The notes under the pieces: model-generated | What the model saw: the letters and a program-made list of their open reading frames with translations, nothing else | Database searches by the model: none | What the model was told of the DNA's origin: nothing | In this document: in pieces, positions 19,848 to 31,868 of the stretch | Layout: each line of letters opens with the position of its first letter | Numbering within the stretch: the stretch's first letter is position 1 | Position numbers and translations under genes: made by a program | From: Gemmatimonadota bacterium | GTDB lineage: Bacteria > Gemmatimonadota > Gemmatimonadetes > Palauibacterales > KS3-K002 | DNA length: 63,649 bases | NCBI GenBank assembly: GCA_039586795.1 | Contig: JBDHJS010000018.1 | Span: forward strand, 1-63,649 | Reading direction: 5' to 3'

Positions 19848-20867
19848 CTAACCGAGCAACTCGTTAACCTTCTTCAGGACCTCGAACGCATCGGCCACAT
19901 AGAGCACGTCGGCCTTGCCCTGCGCCCAGCCACATCCGGCATCCAGGTTGACGGCACGGCGCTCGTTGATGAATCGCCAGCCGACGACGTGTGGCTCCTC
20001 GCCGTGGCAACAAGTGGCCAGTCCTTTCGGGTGTCGCGGCGTCGATCCGGTCTGCCCGACCTGATTCATGTGGGTCATGAAAGAGATCACTTCGTGGCCT
20101 TCCCCTGCCTGATCGACGAGCGACTTGCTGCTGCCCAGTGAGGCCTGAGTGGCATTCAGAAAGCCGAGAATCAGGGTCTCGGCATCTTTGATGTGGCTCT
20201 GGCCATCCGTCTGCTTCTTTGTCCAGCCGGCTCCGGCCACGAACAGCACATCGGCATCCGGCCTGATGGTCTGGGCTTCCACCGCCGGCGCTTCTTCTCC
20301 GACGACTTCGGTGCGCGGGCTCGGGAGATCAACGTCGACCTGAACCAGCGATGCCGTTCCCGCGGGTCCGTCCCAAGCCTCCAAGACCCCGGAATCGACG
20401 AGCATGAACCAGGGCCGCTGGCTTCGGGTCAGGGTGGCCACCATGCGCTGGCGGTAATACCAACGCTCGATTCTTGGTGCGCCGTCGGCAACATCGATCG
20501 CGCCTATGTGCGTGTCGATGCGTCCGTCCATCCGCGAAGCGACGCCGGGCATCGACCGGGAGACTCGCGATGTCCCCGGCGCCAGAACTACCGTCGCCTC
20601 CGCCGCTCTGACCAGAGCCTCGAACGCCGCCGCGTCGGTCGAGTAGCGCGACGCCGCCAGCTCATCTGCGGTCGCCGCGAAGAACGACTCGGCGCCACAA
20701 CCCGCCACCGTGTCCGCCGCGCTCTGGACGTCGGTGCCCACGAGACCAACGGACAACGGGGCGCCCAAGTCGGCAGCCAGCCTCACAGCGCCTCCCAATA
20801 CCTCGCGGGCGGCGCGAGGCAGCGAGCCGTCCTGTTCCGTGTGAGAGATGAAGAGCACCTTCTCCAT
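19848..20867 (-). CDS. etfA: Electron transfer flavoprotein alpha subunit (divergent)
   Basis: ETF N-domain, QVGQTG motif, ADVLYVADAF C-terminus; follows etfB. ATG 20867 after AGGAG. Confidence 0.85.
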   Translation of the reverse strand: MEKVLFISHTEQDGSLPRAAREVLGGAVRLAADLGAPLSVGLVGTDVQSAADTVAGCGAESFFAATADELAASRYSTDAAAFEALVRAAEATVVLAPGTSRVSRSMPGVASRMDGRIDTHIGAIDVADGAPRIERWYYRQRMVATLTRSQRPWFMLVDSGVLEAWDGPAGTASLVQVDVDLPSPRTEVVGEEAPAVEAQTIRPDADVLFVAGAGWTKKQTDGQSHIKDAETLILGFLNATQASLGSSKSLVDQAGEGHEVISFMTHMNQVGQTGSTPRHPKGLATCCHGEEPHVVGWRFINERRAVNLDAGCGWAQGKADVLYVADAFEVLKKVNELLG

Positions 20868-20869
20868 GT

Positions 20870-21679
20870 TCAGCTCCTGAGCCACTCGACGATATCGCGC
20901 GCGACCTCGTCGACCGACATATCTTTCTCGATCCGCGTCTCGCGCCGCTGCTGCGGCACTTCGACCTTCACGTAGGTCACTCCTTCGGCGCCCACCTGCG
21001 CGGCCTGCGCCTTTTGCAGTGCCGGCATGATCCCCCGCATGTTCTGCATGCCTACCTGCGGATTGTTCGGCGGCTCGGGAAGCTCGCCAGTCGACCAGGC
21101 GAGCGCCGCCGGTGCGCCCTGGCAAACGGAGACCAGGTAGCGGCCGCCCTCGATGCGCTCGAGGACGCGCAACGAGCCGTCGTCCTGAACCGTCAGCTTG
21201 TCGACGGCCAGAAACTGATCGGTGATTCCGAGGCGCTCGCCGACCATCTGCAGCGTGACACCCGCATCACGGGACGCGGACGCGCGACCTCCAAACAGCA
21301 GCATGCGCGATCGATCCAGCCCATCGATGCCTTCGATCGCTTGCGCCAACGCCGTCGCCGTCTCAACAGGGTCGACGAAACCGCCGGCCGGACCGTCAGC
21401 GGCGACCAGCTCGAACGGCACCTTCTGCGCGATCGACATCATCAGCTGCTGTAACCGGGCCTTGGGTCCCAGGCTCACCAGCCAGACCTTGCTGTCACCA
21501 CTCTGCGCGGCCAGGTGCGCCGCCTCGTACAGGGCATGCCCCGCCCACGGGTCGAGCACCGACGGCAGCATCATCTCGTTCTTCAGCGCCGGACCCGACG
21601 GTCCCTCTACGGGCTCCAGGACCTGCAGCGGGTCAGGAACGAGACTGCCGCAAACAACGATGTGAAAGCCTGAACTCAT
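20870..21679 (-). CDS. etfB: Electron transfer flavoprotein beta subunit (divergent)
   Basis: HIVVCGSLVPD, LDPWAGHALYEA, VSLGP, GGRASASRDAG. Confidence 0.85.
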   Translation of the reverse strand: MSSGFHIVVCGSLVPDPLQVLEPVEGPSGPALKNEMMLPSVLDPWAGHALYEAAHLAAQSGDSKVWLVSLGPKARLQQLMMSIAQKVPFELVAADGPAGGFVDPVETATALAQAIEGIDGLDRSRMLLFGGRASASRDAGVTLQMVGERLGITDQFLAVDKLTVQDDGSLRVLERIEGGRYLVSVCQGAPAALAWSTGELPEPPNNPQVGMQNMRGIMPALQKAQAAQVGAEGVTYVKVEVPQQRRETRIEKDMSVDEVARDIVEWLRS

Positions 21680-21693
21680 GAAAATAGTCCCCT

Positions 21694-22266
21694 TCAGAAA
21701 CTGAGGCCGAGGTCCACCTGCACAACTCTGTTCTTAATGGTCCCCGCCTCCGATTTCCAGACATCGGTCGTGCCGAAGATGTAGGCAACGTCGAGGGAGA
21801 ACATGAGGAGCTTTCCGCCTACACCGACTTTGTAGCCGAAGTCGAACGCCTCGGTCTGGTTGTCTTCGCAGAAGAACGCCTCACCGTTCAGCAGCACCGG
21901 GCCGTTCTGGGTATTACAGTCGATCTCGAACCCCAGGTTGATCCCGGCGTAGGCTCGGATAAACGGGATGGTGACGCGCAGCATGACCGGGACTTCGATG
22001 TAGTCCAGATTCACGCTGGCCGTGTCGCTGTCGAACCCCTTCTGACTGTAGTACGCTCCTCCCATGAACCCGATCATACCGCCGCGCTCGGTGAAGATAC
22101 CGACGTTGAAGCCACTGACATCCTTGACGCTTCCAACATCCTGACCGTCTACCTGCACAGTCGGCATGGAGTAGTTCCAACCGGCCTGGATTCCGACCTG
22201 AGCGCCGGCCGGCGCTGCGATGACCAGAATCGCCGCGCTCACCAACAACAGCGTTGCAGCTCTCAT
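21694..22266 (-). CDS. Outer-membrane beta-barrel / porin family protein
   Basis: Signal peptide (AGA-Q), YSQKG, LDYIEVP, alternating beta-strands, C-terminal Phe. ATG 22266 after GAGGTG. Confidence 0.8.
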   Translation of the reverse strand: MRAATLLLVSAAILVIAAPAGAQVGIQAGWNYSMPTVQVDGQDVGSVKDVSGFNVGIFTERGGMIGFMGGAYYSQKGFDSDTASVNLDYIEVPVMLRVTIPFIRAYAGINLGFEIDCNTQNGPVLLNGEAFFCEDNQTEAFDFGYKVGVGGKLLMFSLDVAYIFGTTDVWKSEAGTIKNRVVQVDLGLSF

Positions 22267-22276
22267 CTTATCACCT

Positions 22277-24136
22277 CTAGTTCTCGGCTGAATGCAGCCC
22301 GCCGGCACCAGCCCGGAACTCGATGTTGCCCCGTTCCAGCTCACCCTCTACCGGCTGGGTGCAGTTCCAAACGCAAGCACCGCAGTGAATGCACTTCTCG
22401 CGGTCGAACTGCGGCACTCCGCTTTCGTCCGGCGTTATCGCCTCGCCGGAACAAACCTCGATGCACAACTGATTGTCACACGCTTCGCAGACGCTCGGAT
22501 ATATGAACACCACATGGTCCGGATATCCCGGCGGCGCCTGCACTTTGCCGCCCATCAGCAGGGCGTCCTGGTGCGACACGAGCAACTTGCCATCGTAAGG
22601 GATCTCGGGCCAGCCGGCAGCCAACATCAGCGCATCGTGCATCGCTGAGCCCGCCGCAGCGGCCTCACCGCGGACTCTCTGGATATCGCTGCCGGTCAGC
22701 GTTCCCTCATAGTAGTCAGTCAAGGATGGGACGTGATCCTGGGGGCGTTTGACTTCGCTCGAGATATTGATCTTGCCCTTGGAAAGCCCGGTCAGCCCCA
22801 TCCCCAGTAGCCCCTGCACGAAGCCCTTCTGGAAGCCGTCCCGCGCCTTCTCCGCCACGCCCAGTTCTTTCTCCAGCCAGCTGCCGCGCCGCCGCTGCAC
22901 GTATGCCTTTTCCAGATTCTCTTTCGTGAACGGTCGCTCGTGTTTGAGCAGGTCGATGACGCCTTCGGCGAGCTGGACGCCGGTCGTCCACGCCTCGTCG
23001 ACGCCCGAACCCGTTAGCACGTTGGTGCTGCCCGACCCTTCCCCAACCCGCGCGTATCCGTCGCCCACCAGGTGCGGCTCGCCACGGCGCCCCGATTCGG
23101 CGAGCGTCTTCGCGCCCCACGATCGCATGGTTCCGCCCTCGAGGTGACGCCAGATATAGGGATGCATCATCCAGTGCTGGAGATAGCGGTAGCTCGCACG
23201 GACGGGGCTCTCGAACCACGAAGGAACGAAGATGCCGACGGACGCCACGTTGTCGGGGTAGACGTAGAAGAAGCCGAAGATCTCAGGTTCCGGGTACCCG
23301 ATCGTGTGGAACACCGTACCCGGCTCCAGCGAACAACCCTCCGGTAGGTCGACGACCATCTTCATGCCGACCGCCCAGTCCCGCTGGTGATGGCCTTCGG
23401 GGAGCCCGAAGTGCTCATCGATCTGCCGGCCCACCGGGCCGATTGGCCCATCGGCGACGACCGTCAGCGCCGCCCGAACATCCATACCGGGCATGTACCC
23501 GGCGTCGGGGGTCCCCTGTGCATCGACGCCCTGGTCGGCAAGTCGCACGCCGACGACCGCATCCTTCTCGATGATCGGCCCGGCAACCGGCGAGCTTGGC
23601 CAAAGCTGGATGAGCCCCTGGGCCATCAGCTGCTGACCCACCCACTGGTTGAACTGCCCGATGGACAGGACGATCCCGTCCTTCTTCTCCATGAAGTCGG
23701 GGATGTACGGTAACTCGACCGCTTTCTCCCGGCTCTTACCGATGAGCTTCAGGCTAGCCGTCAGCGCATCCATGCTCTTCACGCCCCTCGGCCTTCGGCT
23801 CGCCCCTACTGGGTCTTTGAGATAGACGAGTTTCTCCCTTGTCACCTCATGAGCCATCGGGATCTGCGAGAGATCGAGGTTAGGGAAGGACTCACGGATT
23901 CCGCGGGCCCGAGTTACGACGCCCGAGACGCCGAATCCGATGTCGTCCGCTCGTTCGTAGCAAAGCACCTGGAGCGGCATGCCCGGCATCGCCGAGCTCA
24001 TCATGTAGGGCTGAAGATCCGGGTCCTGCATGGCCCGGGACAGCGTCGTCAGGAAACCGCCCGACGCCGGACCGAACCCGACGCAGACGATATCAACGTC
24101 CATGCTCTGGCGCTGGACGTCCACCGCTTCGATCAT
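22277..24136 (-). CDS. ETF-quinone oxidoreductase (FixC-FixX-like fusion with C-terminal 4Fe-4S)
   Basis: DIVCVGFGPASG, ADGPIG, SWGAKTL, C-terminal CEAC...C...C and CIHCGACVWNC. Confidence 0.88.
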   Translation of the reverse strand: MIEAVDVQRQSMDVDIVCVGFGPASGGFLTTLSRAMQDPDLQPYMMSSAMPGMPLQVLCYERADDIGFGVSGVVTRARGIRESFPNLDLSQIPMAHEVTREKLVYLKDPVGASRRPRGVKSMDALTASLKLIGKSREKAVELPYIPDFMEKKDGIVLSIGQFNQWVGQQLMAQGLIQLWPSSPVAGPIIEKDAVVGVRLADQGVDAQGTPDAGYMPGMDVRAALTVVADGPIGPVGRQIDEHFGLPEGHHQRDWAVGMKMVVDLPEGCSLEPGTVFHTIGYPEPEIFGFFYVYPDNVASVGIFVPSWFESPVRASYRYLQHWMMHPYIWRHLEGGTMRSWGAKTLAESGRRGEPHLVGDGYARVGEGSGSTNVLTGSGVDEAWTTGVQLAEGVIDLLKHERPFTKENLEKAYVQRRRGSWLEKELGVAEKARDGFQKGFVQGLLGMGLTGLSKGKINISSEVKRPQDHVPSLTDYYEGTLTGSDIQRVRGEAAAAGSAMHDALMLAAGWPEIPYDGKLLVSHQDALLMGGKVQAPPGYPDHVVFIYPSVCEACDNQLCIEVCSGEAITPDESGVPQFDREKCIHCGACVWNCTQPVEGELERGNIEFRAGAGGLHSAEN

Positions 24137-24149
24137 CGATGGCCCTCCA

Positions 24150-26384
24150 TCACTGCGGGTAGTCGAGGGCCTCGGGGATCGTGACCTCGGTGATCGCTCG
24201 CGCCGCCCGGTCTTTGGCCAGGCGTGAACCCGTGAGGCAGCCGTCAAGCTTACCGCGCCGAAGCGTGAAGGGCTCGTAACCGTCGAAGCGGACACACGGC
24301 CCGCGCTTCAGCGGAGCTTCACCGTCTTCATCGAACGCGTCGACCGCACACGAACACAGACCTGGCGCCACCGCCTCAAGAACCGCTAGCTCCCTGCCCT
24401 GGAAGGCGCGGTCGGCGTCGCTGGTCCACGAGGGATGCTGGTTGTAGCCGAATACCAACGAAGAACAGATCCTTCCCACTTCACCGCCAGCGCTCGCCGC
24501 CTGGACGTGCGCCAGGTCCGTGAAGAACCGCACGAAACCGGGCAGTGCCTCTGCCAGACTCGGGTTCAGACCCCCGTTCTCGTCCAACTCGATCACGTCC
24601 ATGATCTGATAGCGCGAAGCCATCAGCCAGCACAGCGCGTCGGCCATCGGGAAGGTGACACCCTGGCGGTGCCCCTTGTACAGCGGCGCGCCGCTGTCGT
24701 CGGTCGCGTCGAGCAGGTGGCGAAGCGTCCAGAGCCACAGGTCCATCGCCGACGCCAGCGTGCAGCCGCCGGAACCCGGACGGTGCCCCGCGACCTGGCG
24801 CAACTCCCGAATCCATTCCTCGAACTGCGCCAGGAAAACCGGATTTGTCATCGTGACGCTCAGCTGCCGGCGTTGCACAGCTTCCGGCCCTTCGTACGTC
24901 GCTTCCAGCTGCGCGTCCATCCACTTCTGCGGCAAGAACCCTGGACAGTCTTCCGTGATCCCATACCCGCCCATCAGGCTCACCGCCTCGCGCATCATGT
25001 TCGCGCCGTGCCCGGTGTTCCACAGCTTGATAGCGGGGCATAGAACATTGGCCAGCGAGTCTTTCACCAGATACTGGATCAGTTCGTTCGACTCCAGTTC
25101 CTGGAACCGAGCCTGATCGCGCTCGTTCTCCGGTTTCGCGGCGAGGCGTACGTACTCAACCGCCTGGTCCGTCCACTTGGCCAACGCTCGAATAGACTTT
25201 CGGCCTTCGGGTATTTCATACCGCTTGAAGATCTCCTCGCGGCTATGATCCAGTGGATCCAACTCGTCAAATAACCTCGCTCCCGCGAAGCCCAGTGATG
25301 CGCTCGCCTCGCCCGTCGCCCAGATGTCGGTCACGCGGTGCAACACGTCTTCCTTCTGCTGCAGACCCAACTCGTGGCGTGGCGTGCCCGGCGTGTCCAT
25401 CGATCCGCCGCGGAAGCGACCTCGATGGTACCGGATCACCGGCTCTACCGCCGACAACAGCTTGGCCGCAGTCATCATGCCGACCGTCACACGCGTACGG
25501 CGGAACACCGAGTCGATGATCTCGGAGTGCGTGTAGTTCGGAACGATCACGCCGTCCTCGATGGTGTAGCCACCGATGATACGGCTCGCGGGAACATCGA
25601 GGCTGAATGCGGGATCACTGGTGGCAGAGAGCTGGTGAACGAGCTTCTTGGTCGGAGTGCCGCGATCGTACGTCCCTGGATCGCTCTCCTCGAGAATGAT
25701 CATGCAACTGCTCTTGATGCGATCATCGCCGGTATCCACCGCCGCGGACACAAAGTTGGCAAACGCCATGTTGGTGATGAATCGACCGCGCTTCTCTACA
25801 TGTAGGACCGGCTCCTCGCCTTCTTTCCACTCCTTCACCGTGACTTTTCCGCCCAGGATACCCGTGTCCACACCGACGTAAGGGATCGGCTCCGTCAACG
25901 CGAACGCGCTGCGCTCAACCTCACGATCCTCGCCAGGCTGCGGCGGCGCAAACCGCCTCGAGTACTCCTCCTTCTGCTCGAGCGTCCCTTTCTCATGAAT
26001 CGGCGACAGACCCAGGTGACCCGCCATGGCGCCCGTCGATGCGCCGCCGTCCACCCAGGCCAGCTCGAACGCCGCCAATGCCATCGCCAGGTTCTTTGGA
26101 CCTTCGATGAAGCCGCCGTACTCCGGCTCCAGGAACACGCTGGTGATCCCCGCCTCGTCGTAGGCCTTGAGCAGCGCGTTCTTCTCTTCCGTCCATTCGT
26201 GCGTGTTTCGCGCACCCTCGGCGACCAGTCTCGCCACGGGTCCGCGCGCCACCGCTCGCGCCGCCTGCACCAGCATCTGAAGGTCGTAGCGATCGCTGAA
26301 CCGCCACATCACCTGGCGCACGTCATCGCCCGGAAGCGTGCCGAGACCGGTCTGGGTCTGAGTATCAGGGTTGGCTGAGCTCAT
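24150..26384 (-). CDS. Large acyl-CoA dehydrogenase family protein
   Basis: AFALTEP, KRGRFITN, LMGGYG, TYEGPEAVQR. Confidence 0.9.
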   Translation of the reverse strand: MSSANPDTQTQTGLGTLPGDDVRQVMWRFSDRYDLQMLVQAARAVARGPVARLVAEGARNTHEWTEEKNALLKAYDEAGITSVFLEPEYGGFIEGPKNLAMALAAFELAWVDGGASTGAMAGHLGLSPIHEKGTLEQKEEYSRRFAPPQPGEDREVERSAFALTEPIPYVGVDTGILGGKVTVKEWKEGEEPVLHVEKRGRFITNMAFANFVSAAVDTGDDRIKSSCMIILEESDPGTYDRGTPTKKLVHQLSATSDPAFSLDVPASRIIGGYTIEDGVIVPNYTHSEIIDSVFRRTRVTVGMMTAAKLLSAVEPVIRYHRGRFRGGSMDTPGTPRHELGLQQKEDVLHRVTDIWATGEASASLGFAGARLFDELDPLDHSREEIFKRYEIPEGRKSIRALAKWTDQAVEYVRLAAKPENERDQARFQELESNELIQYLVKDSLANVLCPAIKLWNTGHGANMMREAVSLMGGYGITEDCPGFLPQKWMDAQLEATYEGPEAVQRRQLSVTMTNPVFLAQFEEWIRELRQVAGHRPGSGGCTLASAMDLWLWTLRHLLDATDDSGAPLYKGHRQGVTFPMADALCWLMASRYQIMDVIELDENGGLNPSLAEALPGFVRFFTDLAHVQAASAGGEVGRICSSLVFGYNQHPSWTSDADRAFQGRELAVLEAVAPGLCSCAVDAFDEDGEAPLKRGPCVRFDGYEPFTLRRGKLDGCLTGSRLAKDRAARAITEVTIPEALDYPQ

Positions 26385-28513: not shown

Positions 28514-28789
28514 TCAGTCTTCGTCGTCCGGAATGTCCACCGGCGTCGTATGCAGGCAGCTGTCCAGCATCATCTCCAGCCGCTCCGGGTTGAAGCCGAT
28601 GACGAAGTCTTTGCCATGCGCGATCACCGGCACGCCGACGCCGCCAGTCAGCGCACGCCACTCTCTGAGTTCGAAGACATCCTTGGTGATGTCTGCTTCC
28701 ACAAACTCACAGCCGTTTTCTCTCAGCCAATCCTTGGCGAGCCCGCAATAGGGTCAAGTCGGCGTCGTGTAGACTTTGATATCAGGCAT
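28514..28789 (-). CDS. Selenocysteine-containing glutaredoxin (NrdH/YruB-like, UPYC active site), 91 aa
   Basis: MPDIKVYTTPT-U(TGA 28754-28756)-PYCGLAKDWL...GVPVI...GF. GAGGA RBS; the ORF track shows only the part after the TGA. Confidence 0.85.
28722..28741 (-). other. Bacterial SECIS-like hairpin
   Basis: CUC-GCCAA-GGA-UUGGC-U-GAG begins 12 nt after the UGA; G-first apical loop and a bulged U. Confidence 0.65.
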
Positions 28790-28839
28790 CGTCACATTCC
28801 TCGCTTGCGAACGTGAGTATGGAGAGTTGGTTTAAAGGG

Positions 28840-28942: not shown

Positions 28943-28958
28943 GATTATCAAGTTGCTC

Positions 28959-31868
28959 ATGAAAGATGAGCTGATACCGTTTCCGAAGCAGATCGAGGCC
29001 ATCGAGGCCGACCCAGGGCCGGTCCTTGTCCTCGCCGGGCCCGGCGCCGGAAAGACGTTCTGCCTGATCCGACGCGTCGCTCGCCTTATTCAAAACGCAG
29101 GCTTCTCGCCCGAGCGGATCTGCGCCGTCACGTTCACCAACAAAGCCGCTGAAGAAGTCACGGCCCGACTCCACGCTCAGCTCGGCGCGGAGGCCGACAA
29201 AATCACTCGCGGAACCCTTCACTCCCTTTGCCTGGGCATTCTGCGGGACCACCCCGAGAAGCTTGGACTGCGCCGTGGCTTCGGGGTTGCCGACGACGAG
29301 TACCAAAAGCTGCTGCTGCGGCGCCTCAACGTCTGGCCCGAGAAACGGCGCGGGCGCCTGCTGAATCTATTCGGGCGTCGCCGCCTCCAGGGCTACGAGC
29401 TGACCGAAAACGACGATGCGATCTACGAGAGCTACCTCTCGTCACTGCGCGAGAAGAACCTGGTCGACTTCGACGACATCATCGCCCTCACGGACCGGCT
29501 GTTCCGCGAACACCCGGAGGTGGCCGTGGAGGTCGCCTCGCGCTGGGACTACGTACTTGTTGACGAGTTTCAGGACCTGGACGCGTCACAGTACACCATC
29601 ATCAAGCGCCTGGCCGAAGAGCACCGCAACATCTTCGCGGTGGGTGACGACGAGCAATCGATCTTTTCGTGGCGCGGTTCAGATCCTCGTATCATCTGGC
29701 GCTTCAGTACCGAGTTCAAAGCAAAGGAGATCATCCTCGACAAAAACTGTCGCTGCAGCCGGCAGATCTTCGACGTCGCGCGACGCCTGATGCGAGAAAA
29801 TCCTGAGTTGTTCCGCAAGGAAATCGAGGCGGACCGGGAGTCGGAACATGAAGTGATTGCCTACGCCTTCGATGATGAAGACGCCGAAGCCAACTGGATA
29901 ATCGACGACATACTGGCCGACCGTGCGGAATCGGGGCTCGGCTGGGGTGACTACGCCGTGCTATATAGACAGCACCTCGTGGGGCGTCACCTGGAGAGCC
30001 GCATGGTCGCGGCGGAGCTGCCCTGTCGTCTGGCTCGCGGGCGATCGTTGCTCGATGACTCGGTCATCGCCTATGTGGTCGCCTCGCTCCGCCTCGTCGC
30101 CGCGCCCGATGACCCGATCAACGTGGAAGCCTTCGCCGAGCGCATGTTGCCGCGGGCGCTGATCGGTGAGGTCCGGACGCTGGCCCAGCGAAACGATGTC
30201 GAGCTCCTGCAGGCGCTTCGCCTCTACGCGCGCAACCACCCGAAGGATCATCCCGACACCAAGAAAGCGTGGCGGCTCATCTTCCACGTGGAGAACCTGC
30301 GGGCGCTGTATGAGTCCCACGAGTCGCTGGACGACTTAATCAACGAGCTACTAACGCAGCGCGTTCGGCGCTACGACAACAAGCTGGAAGAGCGATATGA
30401 AGACCTCGATGACCCGCTAGGCTTTCCTGGGGCTGCAGAGCTAGCCGAGCAGTTGCGCGAAGTCGTGAAGCGGGGCGGTCGAATCTGGATAGAGCCGCGG
30501 GGCGGCGGCGAGATCGCGATACGCGGGATGATGATGGCGGCCAAGCTCCCCGCCGCCGTAGACTACCTGACTGATGACGTCGATCCGGTCCCCGCGGATC
30601 TGGTGTTGCGGGCGGAAGCCAAGTGCGAGCGCCCCTTCATCACCACCCTGTTCAAGGCGCTGCAGTTCGTGCACAGCCGCGACTTTGCTGATGGGCTTCG
30701 CGAATTCGTCACCTTCGATCTCGAGACGACGGATCTGGACCCGATGACCTGCGAGATCGTCGAGATCGGAGCCTCCCGGGTGCGCGGCGGACAGGTGGTC
30801 GAGACGTTCCACTCCCTCGTTCGCCCCGGGAAGCCGGTGGCGCCCGGCGCGTCAGAGGTCCACGGCTATACCGACGACGAGTTGCGCGACGCTCCACCGC
30901 TGGAGCAGGTCTGGCCCGAGTTCGCCGCGTTCGCCGGAGATGATGTGCTGGTCGCCCACAACGGGCTCGCCTTCGATGTTCCCGTCTTGAGGAGACAGGC
31001 CGGGGAGTTCGCCGATGTCTCCAATCTCGTCTTCTTCGACACCCTGCCCCTCGCCCGATCGCTGTTCAAAGAGAGCGCCCGCCTGACGGACCTGGCGACC
31101 CGCTTCGGCGTGGCGATCGAGCGGGCACACCATGCGCTGGACGACGCGGTCGCTCTCGCCCACGTGTTCCGTGGCCTGAGCGAACTGAAGCGCGTTCGAG
31201 CCCGCAAAGCTTCGATGGTCAATCTGCTGGACCACGTCGCGCTGGGATTGGCGCTCGAGAAGTGGAACGTGCTGAAAGACGAAGACCGCTTGCTCCAGGA
31301 GCTCGCGGTGCCATTCGCTCTCGGACGCTACAGCGACTGTCTCGACTTCTACGCCACCGAACGGGACCGGGTACCGGAGGCGCCCGAGCTCGATGAGGTC
31401 ATCGCGCGCCTGGGCGGCCGCAAGATGATGGAACGAATCCGGGCCGAGCGACCACCCGCGGAGCGCTACCCGGCGGCGATGGCTCGCTTGGCCACGCTCG
31501 TCGAGGTGAGCCAGGCTGACACGCTTGAAGAGAGCGTTGCGAACTTCCTGGAGCGGGTCGCCCTCTCCACCTCTGAAGGCGTTGAGGCCGATCCGCACCG
31601 GGTGAATCTCTTGACCCTCCACTCCACCAAGGGGCTGGAGTTCTCCCGCGTCTACGTGGTCGGCGTAGAGGACTTCCAGATGCCCGGCTACTACGCGGCG
31701 GTGGAGAACCGCAAGGACGACACAGACGAGGCCCGACGTCTGCTTTATGTGGGTATGACGCGGGCGAAAGACCGATTGGTGCTGACCCGCACCGCCCGCC
31801 GCCGGGGCAAGGACTCTGGCGGAGAGATGTTCCTCAACGAGCTCGACCTCACCCCGACTCGCCCCTAG
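28959..31868 (+). CDS. UvrD/PcrA SF1 helicase with inserted DEDDh 3'-5' exonuclease domain
   Basis: AGPGAGKT, TFTNKAA, VDEFQD, VGDDEQSIFSWRG, LTLHSTKGLEF, RRLLYVGMTRAK; exonuclease FDLETT, AHNGLAFD, HHALDD. Confidence 0.92.
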   Translation: MKDELIPFPKQIEAIEADPGPVLVLAGPGAGKTFCLIRRVARLIQNAGFSPERICAVTFTNKAAEEVTARLHAQLGAEADKITRGTLHSLCLGILRDHPEKLGLRRGFGVADDEYQKLLLRRLNVWPEKRRGRLLNLFGRRRLQGYELTENDDAIYESYLSSLREKNLVDFDDIIALTDRLFREHPEVAVEVASRWDYVLVDEFQDLDASQYTIIKRLAEEHRNIFAVGDDEQSIFSWRGSDPRIIWRFSTEFKAKEIILDKNCRCSRQIFDVARRLMRENPELFRKEIEADRESEHEVIAYAFDDEDAEANWIIDDILADRAESGLGWGDYAVLYRQHLVGRHLESRMVAAELPCRLARGRSLLDDSVIAYVVASLRLVAAPDDPINVEAFAERMLPRALIGEVRTLAQRNDVELLQALRLYARNHPKDHPDTKKAWRLIFHVENLRALYESHESLDDLINELLTQRVRRYDNKLEERYEDLDDPLGFPGAAELAEQLREVVKRGGRIWIEPRGGGEIAIRGMMMAAKLPAAVDYLTDDVDPVPADLVLRAEAKCERPFITTLFKALQFVHSRDFADGLREFVTFDLETTDLDPMTCEIVEIGASRVRGGQVVETFHSLVRPGKPVAPGASEVHGYTDDELRDAPPLEQVWPEFAAFAGDDVLVAHNGLAFDVPVLRRQAGEFADVSNLVFFDTLPLARSLFKESARLTDLATRFGVAIERAHHALDDAVALAHVFRGLSELKRVRARKASMVNLLDHVALGLALEKWNVLKDEDRLLQELAVPFALGRYSDCLDFYATERDRVPEAPELDEVIARLGGRKMMERIRAERPPAERYPAAMARLATLVEVSQADTLEESVANFLERVALSTSEGVEADPHRVNLLTLHSTKGLEFSRVYVVGVEDFQMPGYYAAVENRKDDTDEARRLLYVGMTRAKDRLVLTRTARRRGKDSGGEMFLNELDLTPTRP

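Follow-up and report, generated by a model that had tools for sequence, protein, structure and literature searches.

This locus raises the question of whether a stop codon, placed at the active site of a small redox protein, is read as selenocysteine (Sec). The gene is at positions 28789-28514, on the minus strand, of contig JBDHJS010000018.1 from a Gemmatimonadota bacterium. Note that the window, by which we mean the whole stretch of DNA analysed, covers positions 1-63,649 of this contig (63,649 nucleotides). From the ATG the frame encodes MPDIKVYTTPT, then an in-frame TGA, then PYC, and it remains open until a second TGA. The initial annotation had described this arrangement, with a ribosome binding site, an ATG at 28789, and a TGA where the first cysteine of a CPYC motif is expected. 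All of these elements are in the sequence (Table 1). It had also pointed out that the open reading frame track holds only a fragment of the gene. Indeed, the table-11 list yields just a 62-aa product, started by GTG, at 28514-28702. Public gene calls are shortened products of 50-75 aa, without the active site, and some are named 'hypothetical protein'.

Table 1. Positions, in the window, of features of the redoxin gene and its predicted hairpin
Feature	Positions	Strand	Remarks
CDS, 91-aa glutaredoxin-fold (YruB/Cp9/NrdH-like) protein, probable selenoprotein	28514..28789	-	stop TGA 28516-28514
Shine-Dalgarno-like AGGA	28798..28801	-	8 nt 5' of ATG
TGA at codon 12, in frame; predicted Sec of U12-P-Y-C15	28754..28756	-	TGA 61, TGC/TGT 31 among 92 distinct homologous genes
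Cys15, predicted resolving cysteine	28745..28747	-	Cys in 28/28 TGA forms and 25/25 Cys-form proteins
Full predicted hairpin, including the lower CUC/GAG extension and the U bulged on the 3' side	28722..28741	-	extension variable in relatives
Conserved SECIS core GCCAA-GGA-UUGGC	28726..28738	-	loop 28733-28731, 20 nt past UGA; 5/5 pairs kept in 25/25 distinct rows
Cys27, subfamily-specific conserved cysteine	28709..28711	-	59/61 TGA forms, 31/31 Cys forms
G52-V53-P54, predicted cis-proline loop of thioredoxin fold	28628..28636	-	invariant in alignment
Cys78, in conserved C-terminal C/CC motif, end of last helix	28556..28558	-	Cys at residues 75-80: 60/61 TGA forms, 31/31 Cys forms

The read-through protein matches the Pfam Glutaredoxin family (PF00462) with 46.5 bits, where the gathering score is 22.9 (E 4e-12). 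An AlphaFold2 model, made with a 26-sequence alignment, has glutaredoxin topology (mean pLDDT 82.9) and its top Foldseek matches are archaeal Grx-1, NrdH, cGrx1 and BC3987. A full glutaredoxin/NrdH fold with a GVP motif, as originally proposed, is borne out by these results and by the presence of G52-V53-P54. Features of the Sec-containing glutaredoxin family (PF00462, UxxC) are all found here, namely the PF00462 domain, a thioredoxin fold, the cis-Pro motif and U12-P-Y-C15. A scan of the locus for promoters and terminators returned 0 sites. RNA-library contigs, one each in X18 and X20, contain part of the gene. We discounted both as evidence of expression, since the TGA is outside the part covered and the word share is small.

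Conservation of the in-frame TGA

Contigs from two studies (runs X2 and X4) span the TGA, and no letter differs at the site. The gene is present in 26 of 30 same-family genomes, with one copy cut by a contig end. The initial annotation had weighed the case in which relatives all have TGC or TGT at this codon. This does not apply; codon 12 is TGA in 25/25 full-length same-family copies. In a sample of the phylum, 11 of 401 genomes match at E 1e-15 or better, and nine of these have one TGA while two have none. TGA forms are also present in families f2, f3 and f6, which makes four families in all. The named relatives are Gemmatimonadota.

To compare homologues, genome and metagenome loci were pooled. 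The 125 loci, once deduplicated and stripped of six (three truncated and three with <50% identity), left 92 distinct genes. Among these, which still include near-duplicates and kin, the active-site codon is TGA in 61 and TGC or TGT in 31, with no third alternative. Homologues with Cys aligned to the UGA, as initially envisaged, are thus at hand in these 31 genes; the same alignment is seen for 25/25 full-length database proteins. Residues encoded 5' of the TGA (T8, P10 and T11) are conserved, with synonymous variation. Hence, the 5' part of the gene is under coding constraint. In most orthologues, GGAG- or AGGA-like words precede the start.

Could the TGA be a genuine stop, or a sequencing error, so that the gene is a pseudogene or makes a 62-75-aa product devoid of the active site? 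The 50-75-aa products of public gene calls would agree with this, as would the weak energy of the hairpin described below. Conversely, TGA is found in 61 distinct genes over four families, with TGC/TGT as the sole alternative. The contigs of two studies agree at the site, and the 5' residues and ribosome binding site are conserved. Hairpin constraint that is tied to the TGA, and a complete Sec machinery, also count against a stop or error. We consider such a reading extremely improbable.

Alternatively, TGA might be reassigned throughout the genome, as in the Trp or Gly codes, or be read as Cys. We found no support for reassignment. The gene, and many orthologues, terminate in TGA. Furthermore, orthologue Trp codons are TGG (28/28 at W21 and W44), and matches to selA, selB, TrxR, MsrA and RNR have no internal stops under table 11. 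Reassignment is next to inconceivable.

The hairpin downstream of the UGA

A SECIS-like hairpin that has GGA as its loop and contains a bulged U had been proposed to start 12 nt downstream of the UGA. The structure, CUCGCCAA-GGA-UUGGC-U-GAG, is present as described at 28741-28722, with its first nucleotide 12 nt past the UGA. According to PMC13188914, the bSECIS model has a loop of 3-9 nt, a stem of 4-16 bp, G in the first two loop positions, and a distance of 16-37 nt from the UGA. The geometry here agrees with these rules. There is a 3-nt GGA loop, a 5-bp core (8 bp with the extension) and a spacing of 20 nt.

Alone, the 20-nt hairpin folds at -6.9 kcal/mol (z -2.46; 4/200 shuffles were as good). 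This is 0.6 kcal/mol short of the bSECIS energy rule, which is -7.5 or lower. The 47 nt from the UGA fold at -11.9 kcal/mol; note that the model applies its rule to a window of its own. In longer windows stability is not above that of shuffled sequences (z is -0.38 at 47 nt and 0.03 at 121 nt). A competing fold wins in windows of 46 and 38 nt, and stem probability is 0.04 in one 60-nt window. We rejected hairpin stability as stand-alone evidence because the longer windows are not significant. The hairpin fold alone is within chance, while conservation of the hairpin is beyond chance.

Within the 5-bp core, four pairs are invariant and there is one C-G/U-G change in 25 distinct rows of the alignment. 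No compensatory change in the core was seen among those rows. Pairs of the CUC/GAG extension are kept in 16, 23 and 18 of 28, and we rejected conservation of the bulged U. A putative lower helix, formed by columns 10-12 with 41-43, is just 69% paired and was also rejected. We conclude that the conserved part of the SECIS is a 5-bp stem with a GGA loop. The hairpin first proposed therefore stands in this core; its extension, with the bulged U, varies.

The hairpin loop falls on Lys19-Asp20, and 58/61 TGA forms have GAT as codon 20 (the remainder are two GAG and one GCT), compared with 0/31 Cys forms. Considering only genes that encode Asp here, GAT is used in 58/58 TGA forms and GAC in all three Cys forms. 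Other Asp codons in TGA forms are mostly GAC (Asp33 in 46/61, Asp37 in 55/61 and Asp61 in 40/60). Similarly, the predicted stem probability exceeds 0.5 in 57/61 TGA forms compared with 5/31 Cys forms. Codon constraint at the loop is the best evidence for the putative SECIS. Note that a quick tree, made from 80 columns, needs four label changes, of which one is forced by strong branches, and the count of Sec/Cys switches is unreliable. Since the gene set also includes near-duplicates and kin, the link between TGA and hairpin rests on few independent events. Together, the Sec and Cys genes make a clean natural experiment on a minimal SECIS, in that GAT is fixed at the loop codon in genes with the UGA and not in the others. 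Across the genome, a strict GG-loop hairpin pattern is found 3' of 1556 of the 129,485 TGA triplets (1.2%). A loose SECIS scan gave 11,974 matches and was too noisy to use.

Selenocysteine machinery and other TGA genes

SelA, SelB, SelC and SelD had been inferred to be encoded elsewhere in the genome, and this proved correct. The genome is 97.8% complete, and selA (560.6 bits, contig C96), selB (364.3 bits, contig C19), selD (375.1 bits, contig C23) and the tRNA-Sec gene selC (75.8 bits, contig C19) are each above the curated cut-off. The selD gene has an in-frame TGA of its own. Of 41 chosen genomes, 38 gave a selA match, and the other three are 65-76% complete. Two of these three, at 71% and 76%, carry the TGA form. 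All three Cys-form host genomes tested have selA, as do 320 of 401 sampled genomes of the phylum (the tally includes G209, flagged as unpublished). Hence, co-occurrence with selA is consistent with Sec insertion but does not discriminate, and we treat it as an uninformative test. Sec use looks widespread in Gemmatimonadota. We conclude, from the sequence, that the UGA at codon 12 is very likely read as Sec.

The genome has at least eight TGA genes. Six besides the redoxin, encoding SelD, ArsM-like, deiodinase-like, AhpD-like, MerB-like and DUF411 proteins, were chosen by eye from 31 pattern matches. In all six the hairpin is longer, and its loop, which starts with GG, lies 17-20 nt past the UGA. 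Likely selenoproteins with SECIS-like hairpins are encoded at C53:46943 (+), C59:16450 (+), C58:7287 (-) and C66:26842 (+), which are loci L083, L084, L085 and L087. The kinds of protein at these four loci are an ArsM-like methyltransferase, a deiodinase-like protein with a hydrophobic N-terminus, an AhpD/CMD protein with CxxU, and a MerB-like lyase.

The DUF411 (PF04214) protein is encoded at C22:122107-122604 (-; locus L086/L099). Here, TGA is at the first Cys of a CGCC motif and there is a 9-bp GG-loop hairpin. That site is TGA in 12/12 top loci examined, own genome included, and one internal TGA is present in 19/38 matches. The main text of the 2026 review PMC13188914 does not name DUF411/PF04214, and a literature search found no paper. 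The DUF411 TGA protein is probably more novel than the redoxin. The genome's seven matches to the molybdopterin Fe4S4 domain have no stop within the 55 positions of that domain, which were the part examined.

Relatives, reductant and possible targets

The best NCBIfam model for the protein is TIGR02196 (GlrX_YruB). It aligns with residues 4-75, but the score of 64.9 bits does not reach the 88.55 cut-off, and the same is true of five Cys-form homologues (52.3-76.4). Second-best are the UXX-star families (NF041212, NF041211, NF041114 and NF047338) of small glutaredoxin-like (seleno)proteins, with NF041212 at 56.3 bits (cut-off 66). The protein and the five homologues are below every NCBIfam cut-off, YruB and UXX-star included. 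We take the UXX-star name to mean a C-terminal U-x-x-stop, and none was seen in the present protein. Motifs listed for UXX-star are UxxT and GxGU (PMC13188914), whereas UxxC is found here. In the alignment, the subfamily keeps REWR and GGxGVP. Cys27 is present in 90/92 distinct genes and a C-terminal Cys or CC in 91/92. A protein atlas search returned glutaredoxin/NrdH clusters only.

The closest characterised relative is cGrx1 of Clostridium oremlandii (PDB 7C10, 7C12 and 7C13), which is also the best PDB sequence match (E 4e-11). Using Foldseek, 7C10 and our model have an rmsd of 1.2 over 72 columns, with 38% identity. The cGrx1 protein is a native selenoprotein that has a U/C-P-X-C active site with Sec at the attacking position (PMC7642778). 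Unlike the present protein, cGrx1 has no Cys aligned to C27, and the alignment stops at residue 76, short of the C-terminal cysteines. Its host belongs to a different phylum. The cycle described for cGrx1 uses glutathione. It is also the proposed reductant of a selenoprotein MsrA; the MsrA of the present genome is Cys-type, without an internal stop.

Top structural matches include the Cp9, BC3987 (Bacillus cereus) and NrdH redoxins (PDB 3ZIJ, 4HS1 and 4FIW), which have Cys at position 12 where the present gene has TGA. With the same numbering, our protein shares markers of this class, namely [IV]-x-[ILV]-[YF]-[ST] at 4-8 (here I4-K-V-Y-T8), P54, G65, F66 and L71 (PMC3720550). Residue 44 is Trp, rather than the Leu/Met of Cp9/BC3987. 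In the same source, CP[YW]C is a common Cp9 motif and Cp9 redoxins reduce peroxiredoxins. The Cp9 gene is flanked by those of TrxR and Prx, and NrdH belongs to nrdHIEF operons; the present gene is in neither context.

A search that covered gshB (TIGR01380) alone found no match in the 97.8%-complete genome, and 0/41 related genomes had one above the cut-off. Hence, the protein is probably not glutathione-dependent. The label 'glutaredoxin', given in the initial annotation, holds as the name of a fold but probably not as a sign of glutathione dependence. There is one GCS2-family match in the genome (E 6e-12). A TrxR gene is above the cut-off, as is bshC, which was the one bsh gene searched and was also matched in 38/41 related genomes. 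The reductant is likely to be either TrxR or bacillithiol. Given the glutathione cycle of cGrx1 and the bshC of the host, TrxR is not the sole candidate for this role. At C91:62768-63988 (-; locus L088), a glutaredoxin-like domain with CPDC is fused to a thioredoxin reductase domain.

Taken as a whole, we find it probable that the gene encodes a Sec redoxin, its UGA decoded via the GGA-loop hairpin, that works by a thioredoxin-like dithiol cycle and is recycled by TrxR rather than glutathione. As in the known bacterial pathway, SelB would bring Sec-tRNA to the hairpin, bind there and decode the UGA. By analogy with the Cp9/BC3987/NrdH class, the selenolate of Sec12 would attack a target disulfide. 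Cys15, helped by Thr8, would resolve this to a selenenylsulfide, which TrxR and NADPH would re-reduce. Likely targets would be oxidised peroxiredoxins or MsrA, and the target is the weakest step of the scheme. The genome has nine AhpC/TSA-family loci and one RNR large subunit. At C91:48228 (-), there is also a peroxiredoxin-like gene that has a T-x-x-U motif, with one in-frame TGA, and a hairpin whose loop starts with CGU. This TxxU peroxiredoxin is a candidate substrate of the redoxin.

If the selenoprotein were instead recycled by a low-molecular-weight thiol, bacillithiol, it might remove protein mixed disulfides like a true glutaredoxin or bacilliredoxin. The occurrence of bshC, here and in 38/41 related genomes, is consistent with this. 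So are the classical Grx CPYC motif and the thiol-dependent cycle described for cGrx1 (PMC7642778). However, the markers fit the Cp9/BC3987/NrdH class, for which function is thioredoxin-like (PMC3720550), and no bacilliredoxin family is among the NCBIfam matches. We regard recycling by bacillithiol as quite unlikely.

A role mainly in handling metals or metalloids, via U12/C15 with C27 and C77/C78 rather than disulfide exchange, is suggested by the near-invariance of C27 and the C-terminal Cys in both TGA and Cys forms. Other TGA genes of the genome include ArsM-like, MerB-like and DUF411 examples, and the second-best NCBIfam matches, UXX-star, are tied to metal binding in a review (PMC13188914). 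Yet metal-resistance genes are not conserved as neighbours and the protein retains an intact redox signature (TxxxCPYC and GVP), leaving this role very unlikely. A more elaborate proposal, which we consider unlikely, is that the genes form an unmodelled Sec redoxin subfamily of glutathione-less, bacillithiol-making Gemmatimonadota. In such a subfamily, C27 and the C-terminal C/CC would be a redox relay or metal site, and the redoxin would be a dedicated reductant of the host's own selenoproteins (TxxU peroxiredoxin, ArsM-like and MerB-like).

Returning to the Sec redoxin recycled by TrxR, the 2005 Sargasso survey (PMC1088965) already lists UxxC glutaredoxin as a selenoprotein family, and the 2026 review (PMC13188914) catalogues it as well. 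Hence, knowledge of Sec biology is unchanged. Selenoprotein glutaredoxins with UxxC are already known, and the present gene adds a member that is conserved in its family. What is gained is a corrected annotation, because the public calls drop the active site, and a view of one Gemmatimonadota family using Sec widely. Literature searches by motif, YruB or lineage found no paper on the gene; they covered main texts, mostly of open papers, and Gemmatimonadota selenoproteins could be listed in supplements.

Neighbouring genes encode a UvrD-DEDD helicase and a serine hydrolase, and are variable in other genomes. Among the loci compared, no gene for a redox partner is conserved beside the redoxin gene. 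The helicase gene, at 28953-31868 (+) of the window, is divergent from the redoxin gene and encodes a UvrD/PcrA-like protein of about 970 aa with an inserted DEDD exonuclease domain. It flanks the redoxin gene in most same-family loci but was absent from that position in all the more distant loci examined, and the downstream gene varies. Hence, we read the adjacency as plain synteny, confined as it is to same-family loci, and rejected a functional link. Elsewhere in the window, a run of electron-transfer genes lies at 19848-26384 (-). It encodes a long acyl-CoA dehydrogenase and a 4Fe-4S domain protein that resembles ETF-quinone oxidoreductase. Two ORFs in the same run resemble, by eye, the ETF beta and alpha subunits.
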